The notes below the pieces were generated by a model that saw nothing but the letters and a program-made list of their open reading frames with translations, ran no database searches and was not told where the DNA came from. This document shows, piece after piece, positions 1,436 through 53,492 of a DNA stretch of 64,000 nt. The position numbers were made by a program, and so were the translations under genes. Origin of the DNA: Caldilineaceae bacterium (GTDB lineage: Bacteria; Chloroflexota; Anaerolineae; Caldilineales; Caldilineaceae); contig CBDCOU010000003.1 in assembly GCA_965219935.1 (NCBI GenBank), positions 289,632-353,631 of the forward strand. The letters run 5' to 3'. Numbering within the stretch: the first letter of the stretch is position 1; each line of letters begins with the position of its first letter.

Positions 1436-1585
1436 ATGAGAATCCAACCACGTTGGGATTGACAATCAAATTTCGGCCTGCGCCGAATGCAAAGCAAAGA
1501 AGGGGGTTGAGCGGAACGGCTCCCTAGCGCGACCATCGATTGTAGCACGCAGGTGGGCCGTCGGATCGCAGTCTGGATCCCAATC

Positions 1586-1638
1586 CAGGGCAATCGCATT
1601 CTGATTGGGGCGGTGCCTGCCATGGGTAGGATAGGGGG
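1586..1638 (+). repeat. Left terminal inverted repeat (53 bp) of the cassette
   Basis: cagggcaatcgcattctgattggggcggtgcctgccatgggtaggataggggg; preceded by GATCCCAATC. Confidence 0.8.
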
Positions 1639-2189
1639 CAGCACAAGCAGTGGTTACACTGTACGCAAGGACCCAAAACTGCACCGTCGCTTCCAAGGCA
1701 GGCTGGTCCGGGCGTGGAACCTGGCGGTTACTCCCGATAAGGAGGTCCTAAGGAGTGCCGGCTATGACCTCATAGTCTATCGGTGCGTATTGGGAACACC
1801 CTCAAACGGTCCCTGCCATCAGCGCGCGGCGTAGCCTCGTGATTGCCTCCCGAATGAGGAGGACACGACAACCTCGTGAAGCATGGATTATGTTGAGCCG
1901 TTTCCGGCTTGTGCGCGCCGGGCCGCTGTGTTCGCGTGAGTTCGTTGCCTTGCTACCACGACGCGTGGACGGTTTTCTCGGACCGGTCCGACTACAGCCT
2001 TCCGCCAACCGAATCAGCAATTGATTACCCTGTGACCCCGTATCCCGGTGGACGTACAAGCGATGTAGTATTCCGGAACCACAGGCCGCTTCCGACCCAG
2101 ACCTGCTGTCGGCGATCGACCGGGCTACCGGTCATCGGGAAGTACGCGTTGGTGTAGGCAGTTCACCGGAAGGGGCTCGAAGGGACGTC

Positions 2190-4001
2190 ATGAGGTTGGA
2201 CGCGGTCACTGGGCGGAGCGGTTCGTGGTTATGGATGTGGAGTCTGGGCCTGTGCCTGATGGTGGCAGGGTGCGCAGCCTACACGGAAACCCTAAGCTCT
2301 GAGGACGGCCCCGCGGCCTTTGCGGCGGTCAGTGCCGGTGGCGCTCACAGCTGCGGGGTTCAGACGGACGGCCTGGTCACCTGCTGGGGCAACAACGACT
2401 TCGGACAGTCCGCACCACCAACGGGATCTTTCACCACCGTCAGTGCCGGAGCCGTGCACACGTGCGCGGTGCGCATCGACGGCACCCTCGCCTGTTGGGG
2501 CAATAACGACTATGCACAGGCCACGCCACCATCAGGTACTTTCGCCACCATCAGCGCTGGGCCCCTGCACACCTGCGGGGTACGCACCGACGGGACCCTC
2601 GCCTGCTGGGGGGAATATTATGTTCGACAGTCCGTACCATCGGCAGACACGTTCACCGCCGTCAGTGCCGGAGCCGTGCACACGTGCGCGGTGCACGCCG
2701 ACGGAACCCTCACCTGCTGGGGCCAAAACGCCTACGGAAAGGCCACGCCACCATCAGGTACTTTCGCCGCCGTTGGTTCCGGAGGCGAACACACCTGCGG
2801 AGTGCGTGTAGATCGAACCCTTGCCTGCTGGGGCCGTGAATACTCCGGCCAACCTACACCTCCATCGGGAACCTTTGCCAACATCAGCACTGGCACCTGG
2901 TACAACTGCGGAGTACGGACCGACGGCACCCTCGCCTGCTGGGGCGAAAACTATTCTGGACAGGCCAATCCGCCACCAGGTACGTTCACCACCGTCAGTG
3001 TCGGAGGCCTGCACATGTGCGGGGTGCGCACCGACGGCGCCCTCGCCTGCTGGGGCAATGACGAATACGGGCAAGCCACCCCACCTACAACCTCCATCGC
3101 CACAGTCGGTAGCGAAACCCAGCCCACCCACACGGTGCGCACCGACGGCACCGCCACCCCTCGGGGTCGCGACTGGCTTGGACTGGCACTGCGCTCCAAG
3201 CCACCCGACGGTACCTTCACCACCATCAGTGCCGGAGCCTATCACACCTGCGGGGTGCGCACCGATGGCACCCTCGCCTGCTGGGGTTCGGACAGTTACG
3301 GACGGGCAACAGCGCCGACAGGTACTTTCGCCACAGTAGCTTCCGGCCTCCTGCATACCTGCGGGGTACGTACCGACGGCATCGTCACCTGTTGGGGTGA
3401 AAATCGCTACGAGCAGCAGGCTGCGCCGACAAGCAGCAATTTCACCGCCGTCAGTGCCGGAACCTGGCACACCTGCGGCGTGCGCACCGATGGCACCCTC
3501 GCCTGCTGGGGTCTTGACGACCATGGGCAGTCCACACCGCCCGGCGGCACCTTTGTTGCCGTCCGTGCCGGGTGGCGCCATACCTGCGGCATGCAGACCG
3601 ACGGAACCCTCATCTGCTGGGGCGATGATGACCACGGGCAGGTTACGCCTGCAAGTAGCACATTTACCGCCGTCAGTGCCGGAACCTGGCACACCTGCGG
3701 CGTGCGCACCGACGGCACCCTCGCCTGCTGGGGTCTTGACGACCATAGGCAGTCCACACCGCCCGGCGGCACCTTCGTTGCCGTCAGTGCTGGAGACCGA
3801 CACGCCTGCGGCGTGCGGACCGACGGAACCCTTGTCTGCTGGGGCAGCAACGAAGATTGGCAGGCCGAACCTCCGGACGGCACCTTCGTTGCCGTCAGTG
3901 CCGGGTGGAGCCATACCTGCGGCATGCGGACCGACGGGACCCTCGCCTGCTGGGGGAGAGTCTCGTTGCCCGCACCACTCATGCCGCCGTCTCGTGGATG
4001 A
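2190..4001 (+). CDS. Secreted lipoprotein made of 15 short RCC1-like beta-propeller repeats
   Basis: 603-aa ORF with an N-terminal signal and lipobox LMVAGC. It then has 15 units of about 37 aa of the form FxxVSAGxxHTCGVRTDGTLACWGxxxxGQxxPPxGT. AGGGA lies 4 nt upstream of the ATG. Confidence 0.85.
   Translation: MRLDAVTGRSGSWLWMWSLGLCLMVAGCAAYTETLSSEDGPAAFAAVSAGGAHSCGVQTDGLVTCWGNNDFGQSAPPTGSFTTVSAGAVHTCAVRIDGTLACWGNNDYAQATPPSGTFATISAGPLHTCGVRTDGTLACWGEYYVRQSVPSADTFTAVSAGAVHTCAVHADGTLTCWGQNAYGKATPPSGTFAAVGSGGEHTCGVRVDRTLACWGREYSGQPTPPSGTFANISTGTWYNCGVRTDGTLACWGENYSGQANPPPGTFTTVSVGGLHMCGVRTDGALACWGNDEYGQATPPTTSIATVGSETQPTHTVRTDGTATPRGRDWLGLALRSKPPDGTFTTISAGAYHTCGVRTDGTLACWGSDSYGRATAPTGTFATVASGLLHTCGVRTDGIVTCWGENRYEQQAAPTSSNFTAVSAGTWHTCGVRTDGTLACWGLDDHGQSTPPGGTFVAVRAGWRHTCGMQTDGTLICWGDDDHGQVTPASSTFTAVSAGTWHTCGVRTDGTLACWGLDDHRQSTPPGGTFVAVSAGDRHACGVRTDGTLVCWGSNEDWQAEPPDGTFVAVSAGWSHTCGMRTDGTLACWGRVSLPAPLMPPSRG
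2316..3957 (+). repeat. In-frame tandem repeat, period about 111 bp, 15 units (unit 8 degenerate)
   Basis: Seen in the translation. Segments 3444-3563 and 3666-3785 differ at only 3 of 120 nt, which indicates a recent two-unit (222-bp) internal duplication. Confidence 0.85.
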
Positions 4002-4588
4002 GAAAATCGGTGGCTCGTTTGCGTCCGCCATTGAGACAACCTCCCTTGACTTGCCTTGGGACCCGCACGGAAGTTGAAGACCCGATTTGCGAGGTTGATG
4101 CCTGTGGCCATCAAACCAAACGGCGGTTTGGCCTGCGGACGGCCATCAGGACGATGTCTGTCGTTGATTTACGGGTGCCGTACATGTCCCGCTTGCGGTG
4201 AGGGAAGGCCGGAGCACCGCACGAGATCCACCATGTCCACTGGAGCGCTGGACTGACCGGACTAACCGACTTTGGGTGCAAAAGAGTCACCCGGAGACCA
4301 GTTGGCAGGAACACTGGGTGGGATCCAACAAGCCGCAGACATGTCCGAAGGTGTCGTGCGAGGAAATACCGTGCGGCAGGATCAGGAATGTGGCCAGCCA
4401 AGCCTGCTTCTGGTGGCCAAAGAACTCGACTTCGGTCCCGTTGTCAGCGCCGTAGATGACGGCCAAGGTGGCGATCAGGAGAATGGCGCCGGGATTGGGG
4501 CCGACAGAGATCGTCAACCTCGGCCAGTAGGGACACAAGGGGGACGGGAGCAGGGTCGGCCATGAGGGATCTCCTCGGTGAAACGAAG

Positions 4589-4641
4589 CCCCCCGTCCTA
4601 CCCATGGCCGGCACCGCCCCAATTGGAATGCGATTGCCCTG
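4589..4641 (-). repeat. Right terminal inverted repeat (53 bp) of the cassette
   Basis: The reverse complement reads cagggcaatcgcattccaattggggcggtgccggccatgggtaggacgggggg. It is followed by GATCCCAATC at 4642-4651. Confidence 0.8.
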
Positions 4642-4788
4642 GATCCCAATCTCGGAAGTCGGGATGGAGTCCAGGCCAAAGAACACACAGGGGGTGCCCG
4701 CCCCGATTGGTTTCGCACAAGGATTCAACGCGTGCCAACCGTGCCGAGGGCGGTCCGGAACGGGGGGCGGATTGTCGGTCCTTGGCAC

Positions 4789-5011: not shown

Positions 5012-5123
5012 GCCTGGTCCTGGGTTCCCGTACAGGACAGCCATCGCGGTGCCGGCCCGCGGCCGGAAACGGGGTGTCGCGGTACGCGGGAGGGGAGTTC
5101 AGCTGATCAAGGAGACTTCCCGG

Positions 5124-6605
5124 ATGCGCATTGAAAACGGTGGACCGTACATTGGTCACGAATGCCTGGTGCTGTTCCCGTTCGACACCCACAGCCTGCC
5201 CTACCAGAACGGAGTGGAACTCAAGCTGCACGGGCACACCGCGCCCTGCGGAACCACTCCCAGGGTGCTGGAACCCGGCTCCCCGGGCGATCCGGACTCG
5301 CTGCGCGCCATCTACTATGGCTCGGTGCACCGGGTCGGGGACCAGTTGTACATGTGGTACCTGGGACAGGACCATGATCCAGGCTGGTTCAGCCGCGTGT
5401 GCCTGGCCACCAGCCGGGACGGGTACACCTGGCACAAACCGGATTTGGGACTGGTGGAGTACAAGGGCAGCCGCCGCAACAACCTGGTGGACCTGCACCA
5501 GGGCCATGTGCATGTCCAGTCCTGTGTCGTATTCCACGATCCCGACGATCCCGATCCGGCCCGCCGTTTCAAGATGGTCTACCAGACCCGCATCTACGAC
5601 TGGCGGTTTGCGGTGGCCTTCAGTGCGGACGGCATGTCCTGGACACCACACCCGGACAATCCCGTGGGCTACTGGCTGGAAATGGCCGGCGGCATGCGGT
5701 TCAACGACTGCTATTTCCTGACTGGACAGGGCGGCAACCATGCGCGTCGGCTGCGCAATCTGGTGACCTACACCTCCTACGACTTCGAGGACTGGAGCTC
5801 CGCCTCCGTGCTGGGCATGCAGCGGTCCGGCGGGGACCGGCTGTTCCACGAGTGGCAGGGTACTGCCGGCAAGCAGATTCACCTGGGTGCGGCCCTGTGG
5901 AACCGGAACAACGTGATGCTTGGCTTCTACGGCATGTGGAACGGCCATCCGTCCAATGATCGGCGGCTGGTGGTCATGCACCTGGGATTGGCCGTGACGA
6001 ACGACGGTCTCCACTACCGGGAGCCGATTCCCGATTATCCGATTGTGTCCGCGGCCGAGGACGGATGGGAAGTCCTGCCGGATACCCGCACCAGCGACAA
6101 CTATCCGTCGCTGATTCAGGGACAGGGTTGCGAGAACATCGGCGACGAAACCCTGTTCTGGTACGCGCCGTGGCCGGAACAGGCCAGCGACGGCATCCGC
6201 GTCGCGAGTTGGCCGCGCGACCGGCTGGGCTCCTTCAAGCCCTACCTGGATCAGCGCATGGCGTCGCGGGGCGACTCGCACGTGATATCGGCGCCCATCG
6301 ATCTCGAAGGCCGTCCCGCCCGTCTGTCCCTCAACGTGGACGGCCAGGGCGAACACTGGCAGGTGCGCTGTTCGGTGCTGGACGAGCGGATGTGCCCGTT
6401 GCCCGGCTTCACCGCCGCCGACTGCCGGCCCGTCGCAGCCGGTTTGGCCGAACCGGTGACCTGGGCGAACGGCCTTGATGCGATCCCGCCCACAGAGGGG
6501 CGGATCAGACTGCGCGTCGACTTCGGTGGCATCAGGCCGGAGGACGCCAGTCTCTATGCACTGTATCTTGAGGGACCTATATCCATGACTAGACGGAAGA
6601 TGTAG
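5124..6605 (+). CDS. Hypothetical glycoside-hydrolase-like beta-propeller protein (GH43/GH32/GH130-like fold)
   Basis: Taken from ORF 4959..6605. I chose the ATG at 5124 because AAGGAG lies at 5109-5114. Recurrent blade-like motifs include ATSRDGYTWHKP, FHDPDDPDPARRFKMVY and AFSADGMSWTPHPDNPV. The family assignment is pattern recognition only. Confidence 0.6.
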   Translation: MRIENGGPYIGHECLVLFPFDTHSLPYQNGVELKLHGHTAPCGTTPRVLEPGSPGDPDSLRAIYYGSVHRVGDQLYMWYLGQDHDPGWFSRVCLATSRDGYTWHKPDLGLVEYKGSRRNNLVDLHQGHVHVQSCVVFHDPDDPDPARRFKMVYQTRIYDWRFAVAFSADGMSWTPHPDNPVGYWLEMAGGMRFNDCYFLTGQGGNHARRLRNLVTYTSYDFEDWSSASVLGMQRSGGDRLFHEWQGTAGKQIHLGAALWNRNNVMLGFYGMWNGHPSNDRRLVVMHLGLAVTNDGLHYREPIPDYPIVSAAEDGWEVLPDTRTSDNYPSLIQGQGCENIGDETLFWYAPWPEQASDGIRVASWPRDRLGSFKPYLDQRMASRGDSHVISAPIDLEGRPARLSLNVDGQGEHWQVRCSVLDERMCPLPGFTAADCRPVAAGLAEPVTWANGLDAIPPTEGRIRLRVDFGGIRPEDASLYALYLEGPISMTRRKM

Positions 6606-8408: not shown

Positions 8409-8919
8409 GCGTCAAGTGTCTGCCTGCGGGCGGGTTGTGGTCACAGGGCAGTGCCGCCGACGCTGAGGCACTGTGGCCTGGATCGGCCAACTGGGAGACC
8501 TGGGTACGGTGGGAAACGCTCCTAGTGGGTAGGCTGTTCAATAAATCTGCGGTTGTCCCGAGTGTACGGGATGCCGTCGCCTCCATGCAGAATCGATGCG
8601 GCCGTGTCTGGCCCGGCAATACTCCGGTCTTCTTGCTGAGCCCTTCGAGTCCGTGGTCCGGACTCCCGTCGGTTGCGTTTAGGCAGGGGTAAGAGCGCAG
8701 CCAAACCTCGTTGAACTGGCCCAAGAGGGCGGTGGTCGCGAGACGGTCCGAGTCGCAGCGGGCCGCCAGCATCAGGATGTCCCGTCAGGTTGTGTGGTTT
8801 GATCCACTCGACACGCGGCTCCCCGGTCCCCGGTTGTTCCTGGATTTCAACCAGCGGCGGCGGCCTCACGATATCCATGATATTGTCCAAAGGAGTGTGT
8901 GAAAGGGGCATTTGTAGCC

Positions 8920-8969
8920 AGGCCTCAATCCTCCCGGTCAGCCCACTCCATTGGGATGCGATTGCCCTG
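8920..8969 (-). repeat. Solo copy of the long ISAs1-like terminal repeat
   Basis: ...tcctcccggtcagcccactccattgggatgcgattgccctg ends at 8969. It aligns over about 45 nt with the right TIR at 4589-4641. I found no partner end and no flanking duplication. Confidence 0.55.
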
Positions 8970-13102: not shown

Positions 13103-16100
13103 GTGTCTGATTCCTTCGTCCACCTTCACACCCACTCCGAATATTCCCTCCTGGACGGCCTGAACAGCCTGGATCGGCTGGTGGGACGCGCAGCCGAATT
13201 GGGACAGCCGTCCCTGGCGCTGACCGACCACGGCGTCATGCATGGCGCCATCGACTTCCACCGGACCTGTCGGGGACACGGCATCCACCCGGTGTTGGGC
13301 ATCGAGGCCTACCTGACCAAGTGGGGTCGGCCCATGGACGGTCGGGACAAGTCCCTGGATTCCCAGCGCCACCACCTCCTTTTGCTGGCCCAGAACGACA
13401 CCGGCTACCGCAACCTGCTCAAACTGTGCACCCAGGCTCATTTGGAGGGTTTCTACCACAAGCCCCGGGTGGACCACGACCGTCTGCGGGAGTTGAGCAA
13501 CGGCCTGATCTGCACGTCCGGCTGCCTGTCGGCGGAAATCCCGTGGCTGCTGTCCCACGGGCGCGATGACGAGGCCGCGGAGCGCACGGCGTGGTACGTG
13601 GAGACCTTCACCAGGGAGCGGTTTTTCCTCGAACTGGAAGGGCACGACATCCCGGAACTGGATGTTGTCAACAAGGGCCTGTTGCGCCTGGCCAAACAAT
13701 TCGACCTGAAGATGATTGCCAGCAACGACGTGCACTACGCGTGCGAGTCCGACGGCAAGTACCAGGATGTTCTGCTGTGCGTTCAGACGGGCAGCAGACG
13801 GAGCGATGCCAAGCGGATGCGCATGACCGGAGACAGCTACTTTCTCCGGTCCCGCAGCCAAATGGAGGATGCCTTCCGCAACAAGGTGGACCTTCCCCGC
13901 GACGTGTTCGACCGGACCATCGAGATTGCCGAGATGTGCAACGTCAATCCGGAGGACGATGCCTATCACATGCCCAGGTTCCCGCTGCCGGAGGGATTTG
14001 AGACGGACAAATCCTATTTGGAGGAGTTGACCGGCACGGGTTTGCAGAAGCTGTACGGGGGCGGTCCGGGGGAAAGCACCGCACAGGACCGCCTGCGGGC
14101 CGAGCTGGACATGATCTTCGACATGCAGCTGGAGTCCTACTTCCTGATCGTGGCCGATATTTGCCGGTATGCCCAGAAGGAGAACATCTGGTTCAACGTG
14201 CGGGGTTCGGGAGCTGGTTCGATCGTGGCCCGGGCGCTTGGGATCACGAGCGTCGACCCCCTCAAGTACGACCTGATTTTCGAGCGTTTCCTCAATCCCG
14301 GACGCCTGACCATGCCGGATTTCGACCTGGACTTTCCCGACGACCAGCGGGAAAAGATGATCCAGTACACCATTGATCGGTACGGCAAGGATCACGTGGC
14401 CCAGATTGTGACCTTCGGGCGCATGAAGTCGCGGGCCGCCGTCCGGGATGTGGGCCGCGTTCTGGGCGTGGACCTGGGGGATGTCGACCGCATGGCCCGC
14501 TTGGTTCCGTCCGGTCCGGGCGCGGCCAAGCTAAGGGAAATGCTCGACCCGCAGCACGATGCCCACGACCCGGACGTGGCGGCGGCCGCCCAGAGCGAAC
14601 CGCTGGCCGAGTTGATGCATGTCGCACCGGAACTGGAGGGGGTCGCGCGCACCGAGAGCATCCACGCGGCGGCGGTGATCATGTCCGAGAAGGAGCTGTG
14701 GCGCTACACCCCGCTGAAGCGCGGTCGCAACACCATCTCGGAATACGTGACGCAGTACGAGTTTCCGGTCCTGGAATCGATAGGCCTCCTGAAGGTCGAC
14801 TTTCTCGGCCTCAGCACCTTGACCGTGATGCGGGAGGCCTGCCGGCTGATCAAGGCGTATCACAAGGAAGAGTGGGACATCGACACCATTCCCTATGAAG
14901 GGGAAGGCACGGAACAGGCCTTTGAACTGCTGTCCAGCGGCGAAACCGCGGGGGTGTTCCAGGTTGAATCGGAGGGGTTCCAGGACACGCTGCGCTCCAT
15001 GCGGCCGACCCAGTACGTGCACATCATCGCGGCCCTGTCACTCTATCGGCCCGGCCCGATGGACTACATCGACCTGTACAACCGTCGGATGCACGGAGAG
15101 GTTGCGGTGGAGTACAAGCATCCGCAGCTGGAACCGATTCTGGCCGAAACCTACGGCATCATCGTCTATCAGGAACAAATCATCCGGATTATTCAGGAGT
15201 TGGCGAACTACACGGCCGCCGAGGCCGATTTGGTGCGGATTGCGATTAGCAAGAAGGAACGCAAGAAGATCGACGAGTCCCGGGCAGGTTTCATCACGGG
15301 ATGCGCCGCCAACGGCATCGGCGAGAAGATCGCAGACGAAATCTGGCAGGACATCGAGTTGTTCGCCGGATACGGCTTCAACAAGAGCCATGCCGCCGAC
15401 TACGCCAAGATCACGGTCCAGACCGCGTGGCTCAAGGCCAACTATCCTCAGGAATACATGCTGGCCATGCTGCTCGTGGAGCGGAACAAACCGGACAAGG
15501 TGACCCGCATCATCAGCGAGTGCCAGCGGATGGGGATTCAGGTGGCGGCCCCGGACATCAACCAAAGCAGCCACGAATTCACCATCGAGGTACGGCCGCA
15601 ACTGCAGGATGGCACGGATGGCCCCGCCGCGGTCCAGTCGAACTTCGCTTTTCCGGTGCCCGAGGGTTCCACCATTCGCTTCGGTCTGGCTGCCGTCAAG
15701 GGCATCTCCAGCGAGGGGGTGGCCGGCGAAGTCGTTGCTCCCAGGCCGCCGGACGGATTCGCCAGCCTCGACGAATTCTGCGAGGTGTGCGACCTCCACG
15801 CATTTTCCCGCCGTTCGGTCGAGACCCTGATTCAGGCCGGTGTCCTGGATCGCTGGGGGAACCGCAAACAGCTGATGGACGCCCTGGATGCCATGATGGC
15901 ACGGTCGAAAGTGGCCCACAGTGCCGGCTTGGAGGGGCAGAACAGCCTGTTTGGAGACGATGAAGAGGCGGTCAGGCCGCCGTCCGTGGTTCTGTCCGAG
16001 GCGGAACCGTCGCCGGCGGAGATGGTTGAGTACCTGGGTGTCGAGAAGGAATTGCTGGGTGTGTCGTTAAGCAGCAGGCATCCCGTGACGGATTTGTACA

Positions 16101-17017
16101 ACCGGCTCAAGGATCACTTCACCTTGGTCACGACCGCCAGGGCCGCGGGCGATACGACGGTCAGACAAAAGGCGCGGCCCATCAAGATTGTCGGCCTGGT
16201 TCGAGAGGTGCGCACCATCAGGACCAAGAAGGGCGATGCGATGGCATTCATCACGCTTGAGGATGCCCACGGCGAGTTGCCGTGTGTCGCCTTCCCGGAT
16301 GCCTGGCGCCGCCTCGCACGCACCGTCGTGGAGGGCGTCCAGTTGCTGTGCGACGGCAAACTCAGCTACAACCAGGCGCGGGACGAACAGTCGCTCCATC
16401 TGGAGCAGGTGAGGACCTACTCGGACCTGGCGGACTATCAGACCAAGGAACGGCCCGGCATCCAGCGCTCGCCGGCGTCGCCTGCTCCCGACAGGCGGGG
16501 CGACGAACCGCCGGACACTTCCGAACCGGCGGGCGGGCCCGCCGAGATGTTCGTTGTGGACGAAGCGTTATCCAAACCGGCCGGACACGTGTCGGAACCG
16601 GAACCCCAGCAGGAGATCGGCGAATCGGACGAAGTTCTGTTTGCACCGGAGCCGACTGCACGCGAATCCACGGCCGCCGTGCCTCCCATCGAGTTGGACC
16701 GCCACGAGCAGGCCGAGCCGCCCGCAGACATGCAGGCGGAGGCCGGCCGCGTGGCCCTGTTTCTGCGGCTCGATGAGGGCAAGCCTGTGGGCGCACAGGT
16801 AGCCGCGGTGCAAAAACTCAACGACACGCTGAACGCGGCCCAAGGGTCGGACCGCTGGACGGTGGAGCTGATTGTCAGCGTGAACGGGTTGTCAACCGGG
16901 TTCAGGTACCCCGAACCCATGCCCCTGGACCCGGAGAACGGGAACCTGTCCGCTCAACTGGAGGAACTGGGCGTGAAGCTGTGGGTCGAACCAAATCGGG
17001 ATGGCAACCGAGTATGA
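13103..17017 (+). CDS. dnaE: DNA polymerase III alpha subunit with a long acidic/Pro-rich C-terminal tail
   Basis: PHP-domain start FVHLHTHSEYSLLDG, and later GLLKVDFLGL and an OB-fold region. I chose the in-frame GTG at 13103 just upstream of the PHP motif, within ORF 12893..17017. Confidence 0.93.
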   Translation: MSDSFVHLHTHSEYSLLDGLNSLDRLVGRAAELGQPSLALTDHGVMHGAIDFHRTCRGHGIHPVLGIEAYLTKWGRPMDGRDKSLDSQRHHLLLLAQNDTGYRNLLKLCTQAHLEGFYHKPRVDHDRLRELSNGLICTSGCLSAEIPWLLSHGRDDEAAERTAWYVETFTRERFFLELEGHDIPELDVVNKGLLRLAKQFDLKMIASNDVHYACESDGKYQDVLLCVQTGSRRSDAKRMRMTGDSYFLRSRSQMEDAFRNKVDLPRDVFDRTIEIAEMCNVNPEDDAYHMPRFPLPEGFETDKSYLEELTGTGLQKLYGGGPGESTAQDRLRAELDMIFDMQLESYFLIVADICRYAQKENIWFNVRGSGAGSIVARALGITSVDPLKYDLIFERFLNPGRLTMPDFDLDFPDDQREKMIQYTIDRYGKDHVAQIVTFGRMKSRAAVRDVGRVLGVDLGDVDRMARLVPSGPGAAKLREMLDPQHDAHDPDVAAAAQSEPLAELMHVAPELEGVARTESIHAAAVIMSEKELWRYTPLKRGRNTISEYVTQYEFPVLESIGLLKVDFLGLSTLTVMREACRLIKAYHKEEWDIDTIPYEGEGTEQAFELLSSGETAGVFQVESEGFQDTLRSMRPTQYVHIIAALSLYRPGPMDYIDLYNRRMHGEVAVEYKHPQLEPILAETYGIIVYQEQIIRIIQELANYTAAEADLVRIAISKKERKKIDESRAGFITGCAANGIGEKIADEIWQDIELFAGYGFNKSHAADYAKITVQTAWLKANYPQEYMLAMLLVERNKPDKVTRIISECQRMGIQVAAPDINQSSHEFTIEVRPQLQDGTDGPAAVQSNFAFPVPEGSTIRFGLAAVKGISSEGVAGEVVAPRPPDGFASLDEFCEVCDLHAFSRRSVETLIQAGVLDRWGNRKQLMDALDAMMARSKVAHSAGLEGQNSLFGDDEEAVRPPSVVLSEAEPSPAEMVEYLGVEKELLGVSLSSRHPVTDLYNRLKDHFTLVTTARAAGDTTVRQKARPIKIVGLVREVRTIRTKKGDAMAFITLEDAHGELPCVAFPDAWRRLARTVVEGVQLLCDGKLSYNQARDEQSLHLEQVRTYSDLADYQTKERPGIQRSPASPAPDRRGDEPPDTSEPAGGPAEMFVVDEALSKPAGHVSEPEPQQEIGESDEVLFAPEPTARESTAAVPPIELDRHEQAEPPADMQAEAGRVALFLRLDEGKPVGAQVAAVQKLNDTLNAAQGSDRWTVELIVSVNGLSTGFRYPEPMPLDPENGNLSAQLEELGVKLWVEPNRDGNRV

Positions 17018-41919: not shown

Positions 41920-42175
41920 CAGGGCGATTGCACTCAATTGGGTTTGGGTTTGAGGCCAACCGGCTGGCACAGATAGTCCTTGTTCCAGGCTGCTGCCAGT
42001 CAGGCGTAGAGCCGTTCCAGCTTGTACTTCAGCCCATAGGGCTCCTGCTCTATGGTTTCCAGTCTCCGGCGCTACTCGCCGACCACAACGGTTTCTTCAA
42101 GGAGGTCACCCAGCTTGGTTGCCATGTGGATGCATGTCTGGCGGACACGGCCCAACTGCCCATCGTCGTACCCGT
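41920..42175 (-). mobile_element. ISAs1-family remnant (terminal repeat plus decayed transposase C-terminus)
   Basis: CAGGGCGATTGCACTCAATTGGG starts at 41920. The minus strand reads ...GLKYKLERLYA*LAAAWNKDYLCQPVGLKPKPN*. This parallels AAAWNKDYLCRLIGLMPKSN next to the repeat at 53369-53390. Confidence 0.55.
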
Positions 42176-52612: not shown

Positions 52613-52705
52613 TTCATCGCTCCTATTGTGCTTCGCAGTACGTTGAACGGGTTCGGATGTGACCTTATACCACACTTCTGGTTGTTGCTTTGGCGGGCCG
52701 TAGGC

Positions 52706-53390
52706 CAGGGCAGGGCAATCGCATTCTGTTTTAAGTCGAAGCCAAGTGAATAAATATTTTTGAAGATTATGGGTGCAGCAGTCAAATGTCCAATCCGATA
52801 ACGAAACAAGCCGATTAACCGATACTCGCTGGCACAAACTGCATTGCACAACGTCATAAATTCAGGCGAGCGGGGACCAGGGCTCCACAGGGATAACAGG
52901 ACGGAACTCCCAAAGCCGGGCGCGGCGAGTGCGGCACTGGACCGGATGCAGGAAGCCGACTAGCGCGCCCACCACCAAGGCCTCTGTGATTGCCTGGAAG
53001 CCACCTTTGCCTTGGAACAGACCGTGGATTGCGTCGGCTGTCGCCACGACTATGCGCATACGGTCGGGAAGAACCGCGGGCGAATTGAGACCGACCGCTG
53101 TGGTGACCGGGTCACGACCGACACCCGCTGCTCCATCTCCAGCCCGCCCCCCAAGGCCAAGCCCCTACTGCAGGCGGTGTGCCAGCACTGGAGCATCGAA
53201 AACGTCCACCACCGGGTCCTGGATGTCGCCTTGGGCGAGGATGACAGCCGCATCCGCACGGGACACGCCGCCCACAATATGGCCATCTCCTGCGCATCGC
53301 CCACAGGCGGCTGGCGGCCGCCTGGAACAAGGACTACCTGTGCCGGCTAATCGGCCTCATGCCCAAATCCAATTGGATGCAATTGCCTTG
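52706..53390 (+). mobile_element. Internally deleted ISAs1-family element with a 10-bp target-site duplication
   Basis: Ends are CAGGGCAGGGCAATCGCATTC... (52706-) and ...GGATGCAATTGCCTTG (-53390). Identical GGCCGTAGGC lies at 52696-52705 and 53391-53400. The interior holds a decayed transposase. Confidence 0.75.
53012..53350 (+). pseudogene. ISAs1-family (H-repeat-associated) transposase remnant
   Basis: GRIETDRC...LLQAVCQHWSIENVHHRVLDVALGEDDSRIRTGHAAHNMA matches the conserved HW.IEN..H..LDV...ED.SR.R.G.A..N C-terminal block. It is frameshifted before AAAWNKDYLCRLIG. Confidence 0.75.
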
Positions 53391-53492
53391 GGCCGTAGGC
53401 TGGCTTGGATGTCGAACGGCGACGGCGCCAACCCGTACACAGGCCAACACTTGGCGTCATGACCTGGACGACCAGAGCCGTCCAAGGTTCCA

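Follow-up and report, generated by a model that had tools for sequence, protein, structure and literature searches.

In composite transposons of the Tn5 and Tn10 type, the same end of an insertion sequence (IS) lies outermost on both sides in inverted orientation, the cargo is located between the two copies, and one target-site duplication surrounds the whole unit. Insertion sequences of the ISAs1 family have ends that begin with CAGGG and generate duplications of 8-10 bp; to our knowledge, the transposition chemistry of this family is uncharacterised. For the mobile insertion cassette (MIC) MIC231, mobilisation in trans has been shown experimentally. MICs are an established class of elements, which comprises MIC231 from IS231 of Bacillus cereus as well as the qnrS2 'mic' on Aeromonas plasmids (PMC3281130, PMC4444841). 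Here we analyse a 64,000-nt stretch of DNA from a Caldilineaceae bacterium (contig CBDCOU010000003.1, positions 289,632-353,631; hereafter the window), in which a 3,056-bp unit with ISAs1-type ends, hereafter the cassette, carries a gene for an RCC1-repeat protein. In all likelihood, the cassette is a non-autonomous, IS-derived cargo transposon that was inserted as a single unit and moved by an ISAs1-type transposase using two left ends.

The cassette has every structural feature of a MIC, i.e. IS terminal repeats, an unrelated passenger gene and a duplication of the family-specific type, without a functional transposase of its own. It differs from MIC231 in that it derives from the ISAs1 family and not from IS4/IS231, and from MICs in that it keeps a transposase stub, that both termini represent the same (left) end including the transposase leader, and that only a single copy is known. 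Moreover, whereas trans-mobilisation of MIC231 is an experimental result, that of the cassette is deduced only. As in Tn10/IS10 and Tn5/IS50, both outer termini stem from one kind of IS end, placed in opposite orientations, and a single duplication, here of 10 bp, surrounds the unit; unlike in these transposons, both flanking ISs are incomplete and there is no encoded transposase, so that the two complete IS copies of a composite transposon are missing. With ISAs1, IS1358, H-repeat/ISEc1 and ISPmar4 the cassette has in common termini that start with CAGGG, a 10-bp duplication and, in the stub, the PF13808 domain. However, ISAs1-family ISs measure about 1.2-1.5 kb and consist of a single transposase open reading frame (ORF), whereas the cassette comprises 3,056 bp, lacks the DDE domain and contains a passenger gene. 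It is thus a derivative of the ISAs1 family and not a member IS. The same termini and the lack of autonomy also connect it to elements at the related loci L019 and L004 that resemble MITEs (miniature inverted-repeat transposable elements), and at L019 the 10-bp duplication is found as well; yet these are short left-end/right-end deletion derivatives without genes, whereas the cassette is 3 kb long, has left/left ends and bears a gene. Consequently, it is either a MIC-like element or a decayed composite transposon, both of which are known classes, and does not represent a new kind of mobile element. The view that transposase-less, IS-ended cassettes are rare needs to be qualified in this sense: the class itself is established, but a literature search, which did not cover the ISfinder family table, returned no report of an ISAs1-family MIC or MITE.

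Cassette termini and the parent insertion sequence

Aligned over 53 positions, the left arm of the cassette (1586-1638) and the reverse-complemented right arm (4589-4641) agree at 48 and differ at five. Their first 16 nt are the same (CAGGGCAATCGCATTC). A repeat search paired 1583-1639 with 4588-4644 (57 nt, 91%), a span that reaches 3 nt beyond each arm because the abutting decamer starts with GAT and ends with ATC. This decamer, GATCCCAATC, directly adjoins both arms. The left (1576-1585) and right (4642-4651) copies form the 10-bp target-site duplication, which is single at the joined flanks of relatives, and they are the only two occurrences in the window (0.12 expected). The initial annotation had described both the 53-nt inverted repeats and the flanking decamer, and direct reading bears out the match in either case. 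The 16-nt end motif occurs seven times in the window with up to three mismatches, compared to 0.99 expected occurrences.

An alignment with intact IS copies revealed the nature of the arms. For about 54 nt both track the left end and the leader of the copies at loci L001 and L002, whereas the true right end of these copies parts from the arms after nt 23 and enters the transposase C-terminus. The left arm (1586-1639, plus strand) is an inward-facing ISAs1-type left end with about 31 nt of transposase leader. Its terminal 23-nt repeat (1586-1608, plus strand) is one position off the family consensus. The right arm (4564-4641, minus strand) likewise is a left end, with the terminal 23 nt at 4619-4641 (minus strand), and it continues through the complete leader to a GAGGAG ribosome-binding site. 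Each arm has one mismatch to the 23-nt consensus, and each of the two variants is also seen at the ends of other copies. The cassette termini are therefore two inverted copies of the left IS end, which corresponds to the arrangement of outer ends in composite transposons that contain inverted ISs. Since both arms comprise the left end plus the transposase leader, the inverted repeat appears to be 53 nt long. The true terminal inverted repeat of the family measures 23 nt, and the proposal of a 53-nt terminal repeat has to be corrected accordingly.

The parent of these ends is a Caldilineaceae ISAs1-family IS of 1,232 bp, in which the terminal repeats measure 23 nt and the duplications 10 bp. 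When the transposase stub of the cassette served as query, a protein search retrieved only short, truncated Caldilineaceae proteins, the genomic contexts of which led to complete or nearly complete IS copies. Scanning species-representative genomes for the end motif gave 23 loci, nearly all of them from Caldilineaceae metagenome-assembled genomes (MAGs). The copy at L001 (9921-11152) is 1,232 bp long and is flanked by the perfect 10-bp duplication GGATGGGACC. The 23-nt repeat CAGGGCAATCGCATTCTAATTGG is present at both of its ends and is the sole stretch that the two termini of intact copies have in common; beyond it, the transposase leader follows at the left end, and at the right end the C-terminal codons for LLKVLSN and the stop codon. 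Full-length copies of 1,230-1,232 bp with perfect 10-bp duplications were found at L001, L005 and L013, and the intact relatives encode one ORF of 378 aa. The uninterrupted transposase gene at L005 (3108-4241) scored 412.8 bits on the NCBIfam model NF033564 'ISAs1 family transposase' (cutoff 70), and its product contains both PF13808 and PF01609. The assignment of the ends to ISAs1 in the initial annotation is thus confirmed by the same termini on a typed IS with 10-bp duplications, and an intact transposase with matching ends does exist in a relative.

Several shorter elements have the same termini. The two MITE-like elements measure 183 bp (L019, 1398-1580, with a perfect 10-bp duplication) and 172 bp (L004, 2993-3164). 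Non-autonomous derivatives of about 500 bp are located at L007 (2420-2919) and L021 (4980-5471).

Empty sites and polarity of the insertion

The cassette resides in intergenic DNA, with a radical-SAM gene on one side and a tRNA-Glu(CTC) gene on the other. From the insertion point it is 141 bp to the radical-SAM start and about 140 bp to a strong promoter-like site for the tRNA, the insertion being upstream of both; this promoter-like site was left intact. To obtain the corresponding region from relatives, we fetched loci via the L27, L21 and thymidine kinase (TK) proteins of the window, which are sequence-identical in many related assemblies. A query composed of the left flank, one decamer and the right flank aligned end to end as a single high-scoring segment pair in 15 related loci (76-94% identity), and cassette sequence was present in none of the 15. 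The loci L036, L030 and L035 read GCAGTCTG-GATCCCAATC-TCGGAAG. At all seven loci that were inspected at the junction, we found one decamer or its diverged counterpart and no footprint. In five further relatives reached via TK, the radical-SAM gene is directly followed by the same neighbour gene, a result based on gene calls alone. At most loci extending to the site, the radical-SAM gene is directly succeeded by a gene for 486-520 aa and then by DinB-L21-L27-L31, with nothing related to the cassette in between; the 486-520-aa gene was not called intact in L026/L027 and in L039/L040 (the same as L048/L049, with a TnpB insertion). An empty site with a single decamer had been predicted beforehand from the window alone, and it was indeed read in the closest relatives as ...GTCTG-GATCCCAATC-TCGGAAG....

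Over both flanks, the identity to the nearest relatives is about 97%, and the divergence from them at third codon positions is 5.6% (both lineages together). Another ISAs1-type relic, a left-type end at 8954-8969 of the window, is common to the closest relatives (L029, L036 and L044) and therefore predates the cassette, which is private to this genome. As relatives carry the empty site, and as the older relic is shared while the cassette is private, the 3,056-bp unit entered the site in one piece, generating a 10-bp duplication, rather than being ancestral and lost, and the insertion is later than the split from these roughly species-level, ~97%-identical relatives. The single transposition event of the whole unit that had been read from its borders is in agreement with the 15 empty sites. 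For uncultured bacteria it is rare that the insertion of a transposase-less cargo unit is documented to the base pair by the empty sites of relatives.

The opposite polarity, in which an ancestral cassette was precisely excised in all relatives, is highly improbable. The 15 loci with joined flanks are spread over several clades, so repeated footprint-free excisions would be needed, and the five additional TK-linked loci share the gene order. Furthermore, the retention of the older relic at 8954 in the closest relatives indicates that relics persist in this lineage. We consider it just as hard to believe that the arms belong to a ubiquitous repeat of the repetitive extragenic palindrome (REP) type or another structural repeat, or that the locus is an assembly chimera, with the decamers being identical by chance. 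In its favour, the end motif is over-represented in the window (seven against one expected). However, a typed, transposase-encoding ISAs1 IS has this motif as its terminus, 10-bp duplications flank several copies, the decamer is single at the empty site of relatives, and a chimeric join would not yield a target duplication exactly at the IS termini.

Transposase remnant, origin and mobilisation

The right-hand part of the cassette contains a transposase pseudogene stub on the minus strand (4315-4563), which corresponds to residues 1-89 of 378 and lacks the DDE domain. Its ATG is located at 4563, preceded by GAGGAG. In a tblastn search with the L001 transposase, residues 1-28 (82% identity) and then residues 31-89 aligned over 4563-4315; an extension beyond residue 89 was judged not credible, and we take the homology to end near 4315. 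The N-terminal domain of ISAs1-type transposases (Pfam PF13808) matches 4314-4487 on the minus strand (E=6.6e-13), and on the DNA level nt 1-337 of the IS correspond to 4641-4321 at 81% identity (blastn). The stub has one frameshift near 4474-4487, and the DPR motif is altered to DLC. Neither a DDE region (PF01609) nor an inner IS end was detected within the cassette by tblastn with the full 378-aa transposase, blastn or Pfam searches. Therefore, the cassette has no functional transposase, and the catalytic domain is absent. The statement in the initial annotation that there is no transposase-like ORF holds for a functional enzyme, but not for this frameshifted N-terminal stub of 89 codons. 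Together with the leader and the ribosome-binding site, the stub fills 4315-4588, which amounts to about half of the right-hand DNA that had been left unassigned. Altogether, 381 of the 3,056 nt are IS-derived, 54 nt from the left copy and about 327 nt (of 1,232) from the right one.

Two further segments of the interior surround the cargo gene (2190-4001). The 550 nt upstream of it (1640-2189) gave no transposase, Pfam, Rfam or repeat-copy matches, and this segment is not repeated in the rest of the window or at the fetched loci; presumably, it is the native upstream region of the cargo gene with its promoter. The segment of 313 nt that separates the stop codon of the cargo gene from the stub (4002-4314) shows no IS homology beyond IS nt 337. 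With Pfam, the ORFs in and around 1640-2189 gave no match, ORFs confined to 4002-4314 not being among those tested. The idea that RNAs are encoded in the unassigned interior was dismissed, as Rfam matched only the flanking tRNA-Glu at E<=1. Likewise, we discarded coding remnants in 1640-2189 and 4002-4314, where neither a frame signal in the GC content at third codon positions (GC3) nor similarity to the fetched loci was seen.

From these data, a scenario for the insertion can be proposed. An ISAs1-family DDE transposase would recognise the two 23-nt termini. Because the two ends of the IS itself share the 23-nt sequence, a left/left pair of termini should be able to take the place of a left/right pair. 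The entire segment of 3,056 bp would then have been inserted between the radical-SAM gene and the tRNA-Glu(CTC) gene, with target cuts staggered by 10 bp and repaired into the GATCCCAATC duplication. The transposase may have been supplied in trans by a full-length copy of this species group. A helper for mobilisation plausibly exists there, for example among the copies in the genome of the empty-site locus L031 (flanks 96-97% identical), which harbours five or more full-length copies, including at least one with an uninterrupted ORF. The geometry with two left ends could stem from two inverted IS copies, or from one copy and a solo end, that once bracketed the cargo.

Some observations have to be set against this scenario. 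By tblastn, no intact ISAs1 transposase was detected within the 64-kb window. Species-representative genomes, JGI metagenomes and the protein collection yielded no second copy of the cassette with different flanks; the source chromosome was searched within the window only. As only one cassette copy is known, trans-mobilisation of the present transposase-less form is inferred. Codons 1-90 of the stub have 22 private substitutions at 235 positions, which lean to the third codon position (5/5/12 by position) and leave the loss of the transposase undated. Finally, the arm divergence of 5/53 speaks neither for nor against a recent formation. It is important to note that the failure to detect other copies carries less weight than it would seem to, given that the cassette ORFs are missing from the protein collection while neighbours on the same contig are present. 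In exact look-ups, the RCC1 protein with five alternative starts, antisense ORFs and ORFs of the stub had no entry there, and neither had L31 and DinB. In JGI metagenomes, a cassette-specific 34-mer across the left junction had no match. An attempt to date the death of the transposase by codon position was withdrawn. The private substitutions over the longer alignment (22/21/23, against 17/20/42 among intact copies) are uniformly distributed because codons 91-126 are not credibly aligned.

Whether the unit had already lost its transposase when it moved appears about equally probable either way. If it had not, a composite transposon may have decayed in place: two complete inverted IS copies, at least one of them with a working transposase, would have moved the RCC1 gene via their outer left ends, and separate internal deletions would later have removed nearly all of the left copy (54 nt are left) and three quarters of the right one (~327 nt are left). 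This possibility, which we regard as real albeit on the unlikely side, predicts the same left-end/left-end geometry and the same duplication. It fits with the frequent truncation or frameshifting of IS copies in these genomes, and the little degraded stub codons 1-90 (~85% aa identity, one frameshift) would be in line with a recent death. On the other hand, two independent large deletions, both of which took the inner ends, would be needed since the split from the relatives (5.6% third-position divergence), and there is no trace of the inner right ends or the DDE region. Decay in place and the movement of an already transposase-less cargo transposon differ in timing only.

It is rather doubtful that the cargo was captured by a single intact IS located next to the RCC1 gene. 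Such an IS would have paired its own left end with a surrogate, a pre-existing solo left end in inverted orientation at a distance of about 3 kb, and IS and cargo would have moved together; one later deletion would have taken the true right end along with the catalytic part. Relics of solo ends are common in this genome (8954, 41920, 52711 and 53390), a single deletion would suffice, and the left arm is a bare 54-nt fragment without coding remnant. However, the terminus of the left arm is one mismatch from the consensus, as for any functional end. Moreover, we know of no described case of surrogate-end use by ISAs1 elements.

Cargo gene, setting and further mobile elements

The cargo gene (2190-4001, plus strand) is an intact ORF for an RCC1-repeat protein of 603 aa with a lipoprotein-type signal, in line with the RCC1-like lipoprotein of the initial annotation. 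Pfam RCC1_2 (PF13540) matches 14 stretches of the protein (E=3.8e-109), and the RCC1-like domain PF25390 is recognised with E=2.7e-72. The repeat period of the gene is 111 nt. In the protein, 14 CWG blades are spaced by 37 aa, seven on either side of one degenerate blade. The signal peptide has an Arg within the first seven residues and ends in the lipobox SLGLCLMVAGC with Cys28, which we take to conform to a PROSITE PS51257-type rule. Judged from these features, the product is probably a lipid-anchored double-propeller protein. A foreign origin of the gene is not indicated by its composition, since the GC3 value of 0.717 is no outlier compared to 0.775 +/- 0.054 for 39 ORFs of the window (z = -1.1). 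The best relatives in the protein collection and in JGI metagenomes are about 59-60% identical. A query built from the non-repeat segments alone had no match in the protein collection, and an ISAs1-type end was absent from all 71 metagenome loci that encode RCC1 proteins.

In the microbiome of Aplysina sponges, Caldilineaceae MAGs with bins of similar size and GC content have been described, and transposable elements as well as eukaryote-like proteins have been named as symbiont features (PMC5649159). In the cassette, a transposable element and a eukaryote-like repeat protein are physically linked, and this linkage represents one concrete route by which surface proteins could be gained. The cassette also extends the MIC-like class to the poorly studied ISAs1 family, which yields short MITE derivatives as well, and offers a simple test substrate (left/left versus left/right ends) for the mechanism of ISAs1 transposition. 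Units consisting of a left end with stub, a cargo gene and an inverted left end might even be recurrent, long-lived ISAs1-derived cargo carriers in sponge-associated Caldilineaceae, which would be mobilised in trans by resident full-length copies and would move accessory genes, including those for eukaryote-like surface proteins, within and between symbiont genomes; this generalisation is speculative, and we consider it improbable at present. The isolate names of several related MAGs look sponge-derived.

A layout reminiscent of the cassette was noticed at L008 (5134-7885; also in L127-L131), where a left-type end with an N-terminal stub (P0019) is followed by an AAA-ATPase gene and by an inverted left-type end with leader. 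The cargo is a predicted AAA-ATPase of 600 aa (PF09820). We rejected this locus as a second mobile cassette, as it has no target duplication and occupies one fixed locus in five contigs; it is a structural parallel only.

Within the window, additional ISAs1-type relics were observed. The relic left-type end at 8954-8969 (minus strand, one mismatch), just downstream of rpmE, had not been listed in the initial annotation, and beside it lies a degraded N-terminal reading frame (~8700-8950). A decayed element of about 680 bp (52706-53400) is associated with the 10-bp duplication GGCCGTAGGC (52696-52705 and 53391-53400) and has an extra CAGGG (52706-52710) before its left terminus. The left end itself (52711-52726, plus strand), also a newly recognised end-motif site, reads CAGGGCAATCGCATTCTGTTTTAAGTCGAAGCC and is of the type found in the ~500-bp non-autonomous elements of L007 and L021. 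Its right end is of the right-end type and continues as the remnant of a transposase C-terminus (residues 205-339, 46% identity, 52982-53287); the element as a whole looks chimeric. At 41920-42000 there is a solo relic of the right-end type, with three mismatches in the terminal 16 nt and a short C-terminal transposase remnant on the minus strand. Both the 41920 and the 53390 relic had previously been tied to the cassette ends; while they do belong to ISAs1, they are of the right-end type and of a more distant subgroup (46% aa identity).

Other features were noticed next to tRNA-Glu and elsewhere in the relatives. The conserved neighbour gene (5121-6605 of the window) encodes 494 aa, is present in nearly all relatives (486-520 aa) and has no match in Pfam or NCBIfam. 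An IS605-type TnpB gene (OrfB_IS605 / Cas12f1-like) resides in the same radical-SAM/tRNA-Glu region in L039 (6276-7595) and L048 (4720-6039), and is truncated in L040 and L049. This intergenic region is a repeated landing site for unrelated mobile elements. In L028 (6273-9227), an IS1595-type transposase gene and an HNH/N6_N4 methyltransferase gene are located between DinB and rplU. Finally, in L034 an ORF for 519 aa on the opposite strand (15243-16802) seems to interrupt the gene for the DNA polymerase III alpha subunit, of which only the C-terminal 773 residues were called downstream; this arrangement could reflect an insertion in dnaE or an assembly problem.

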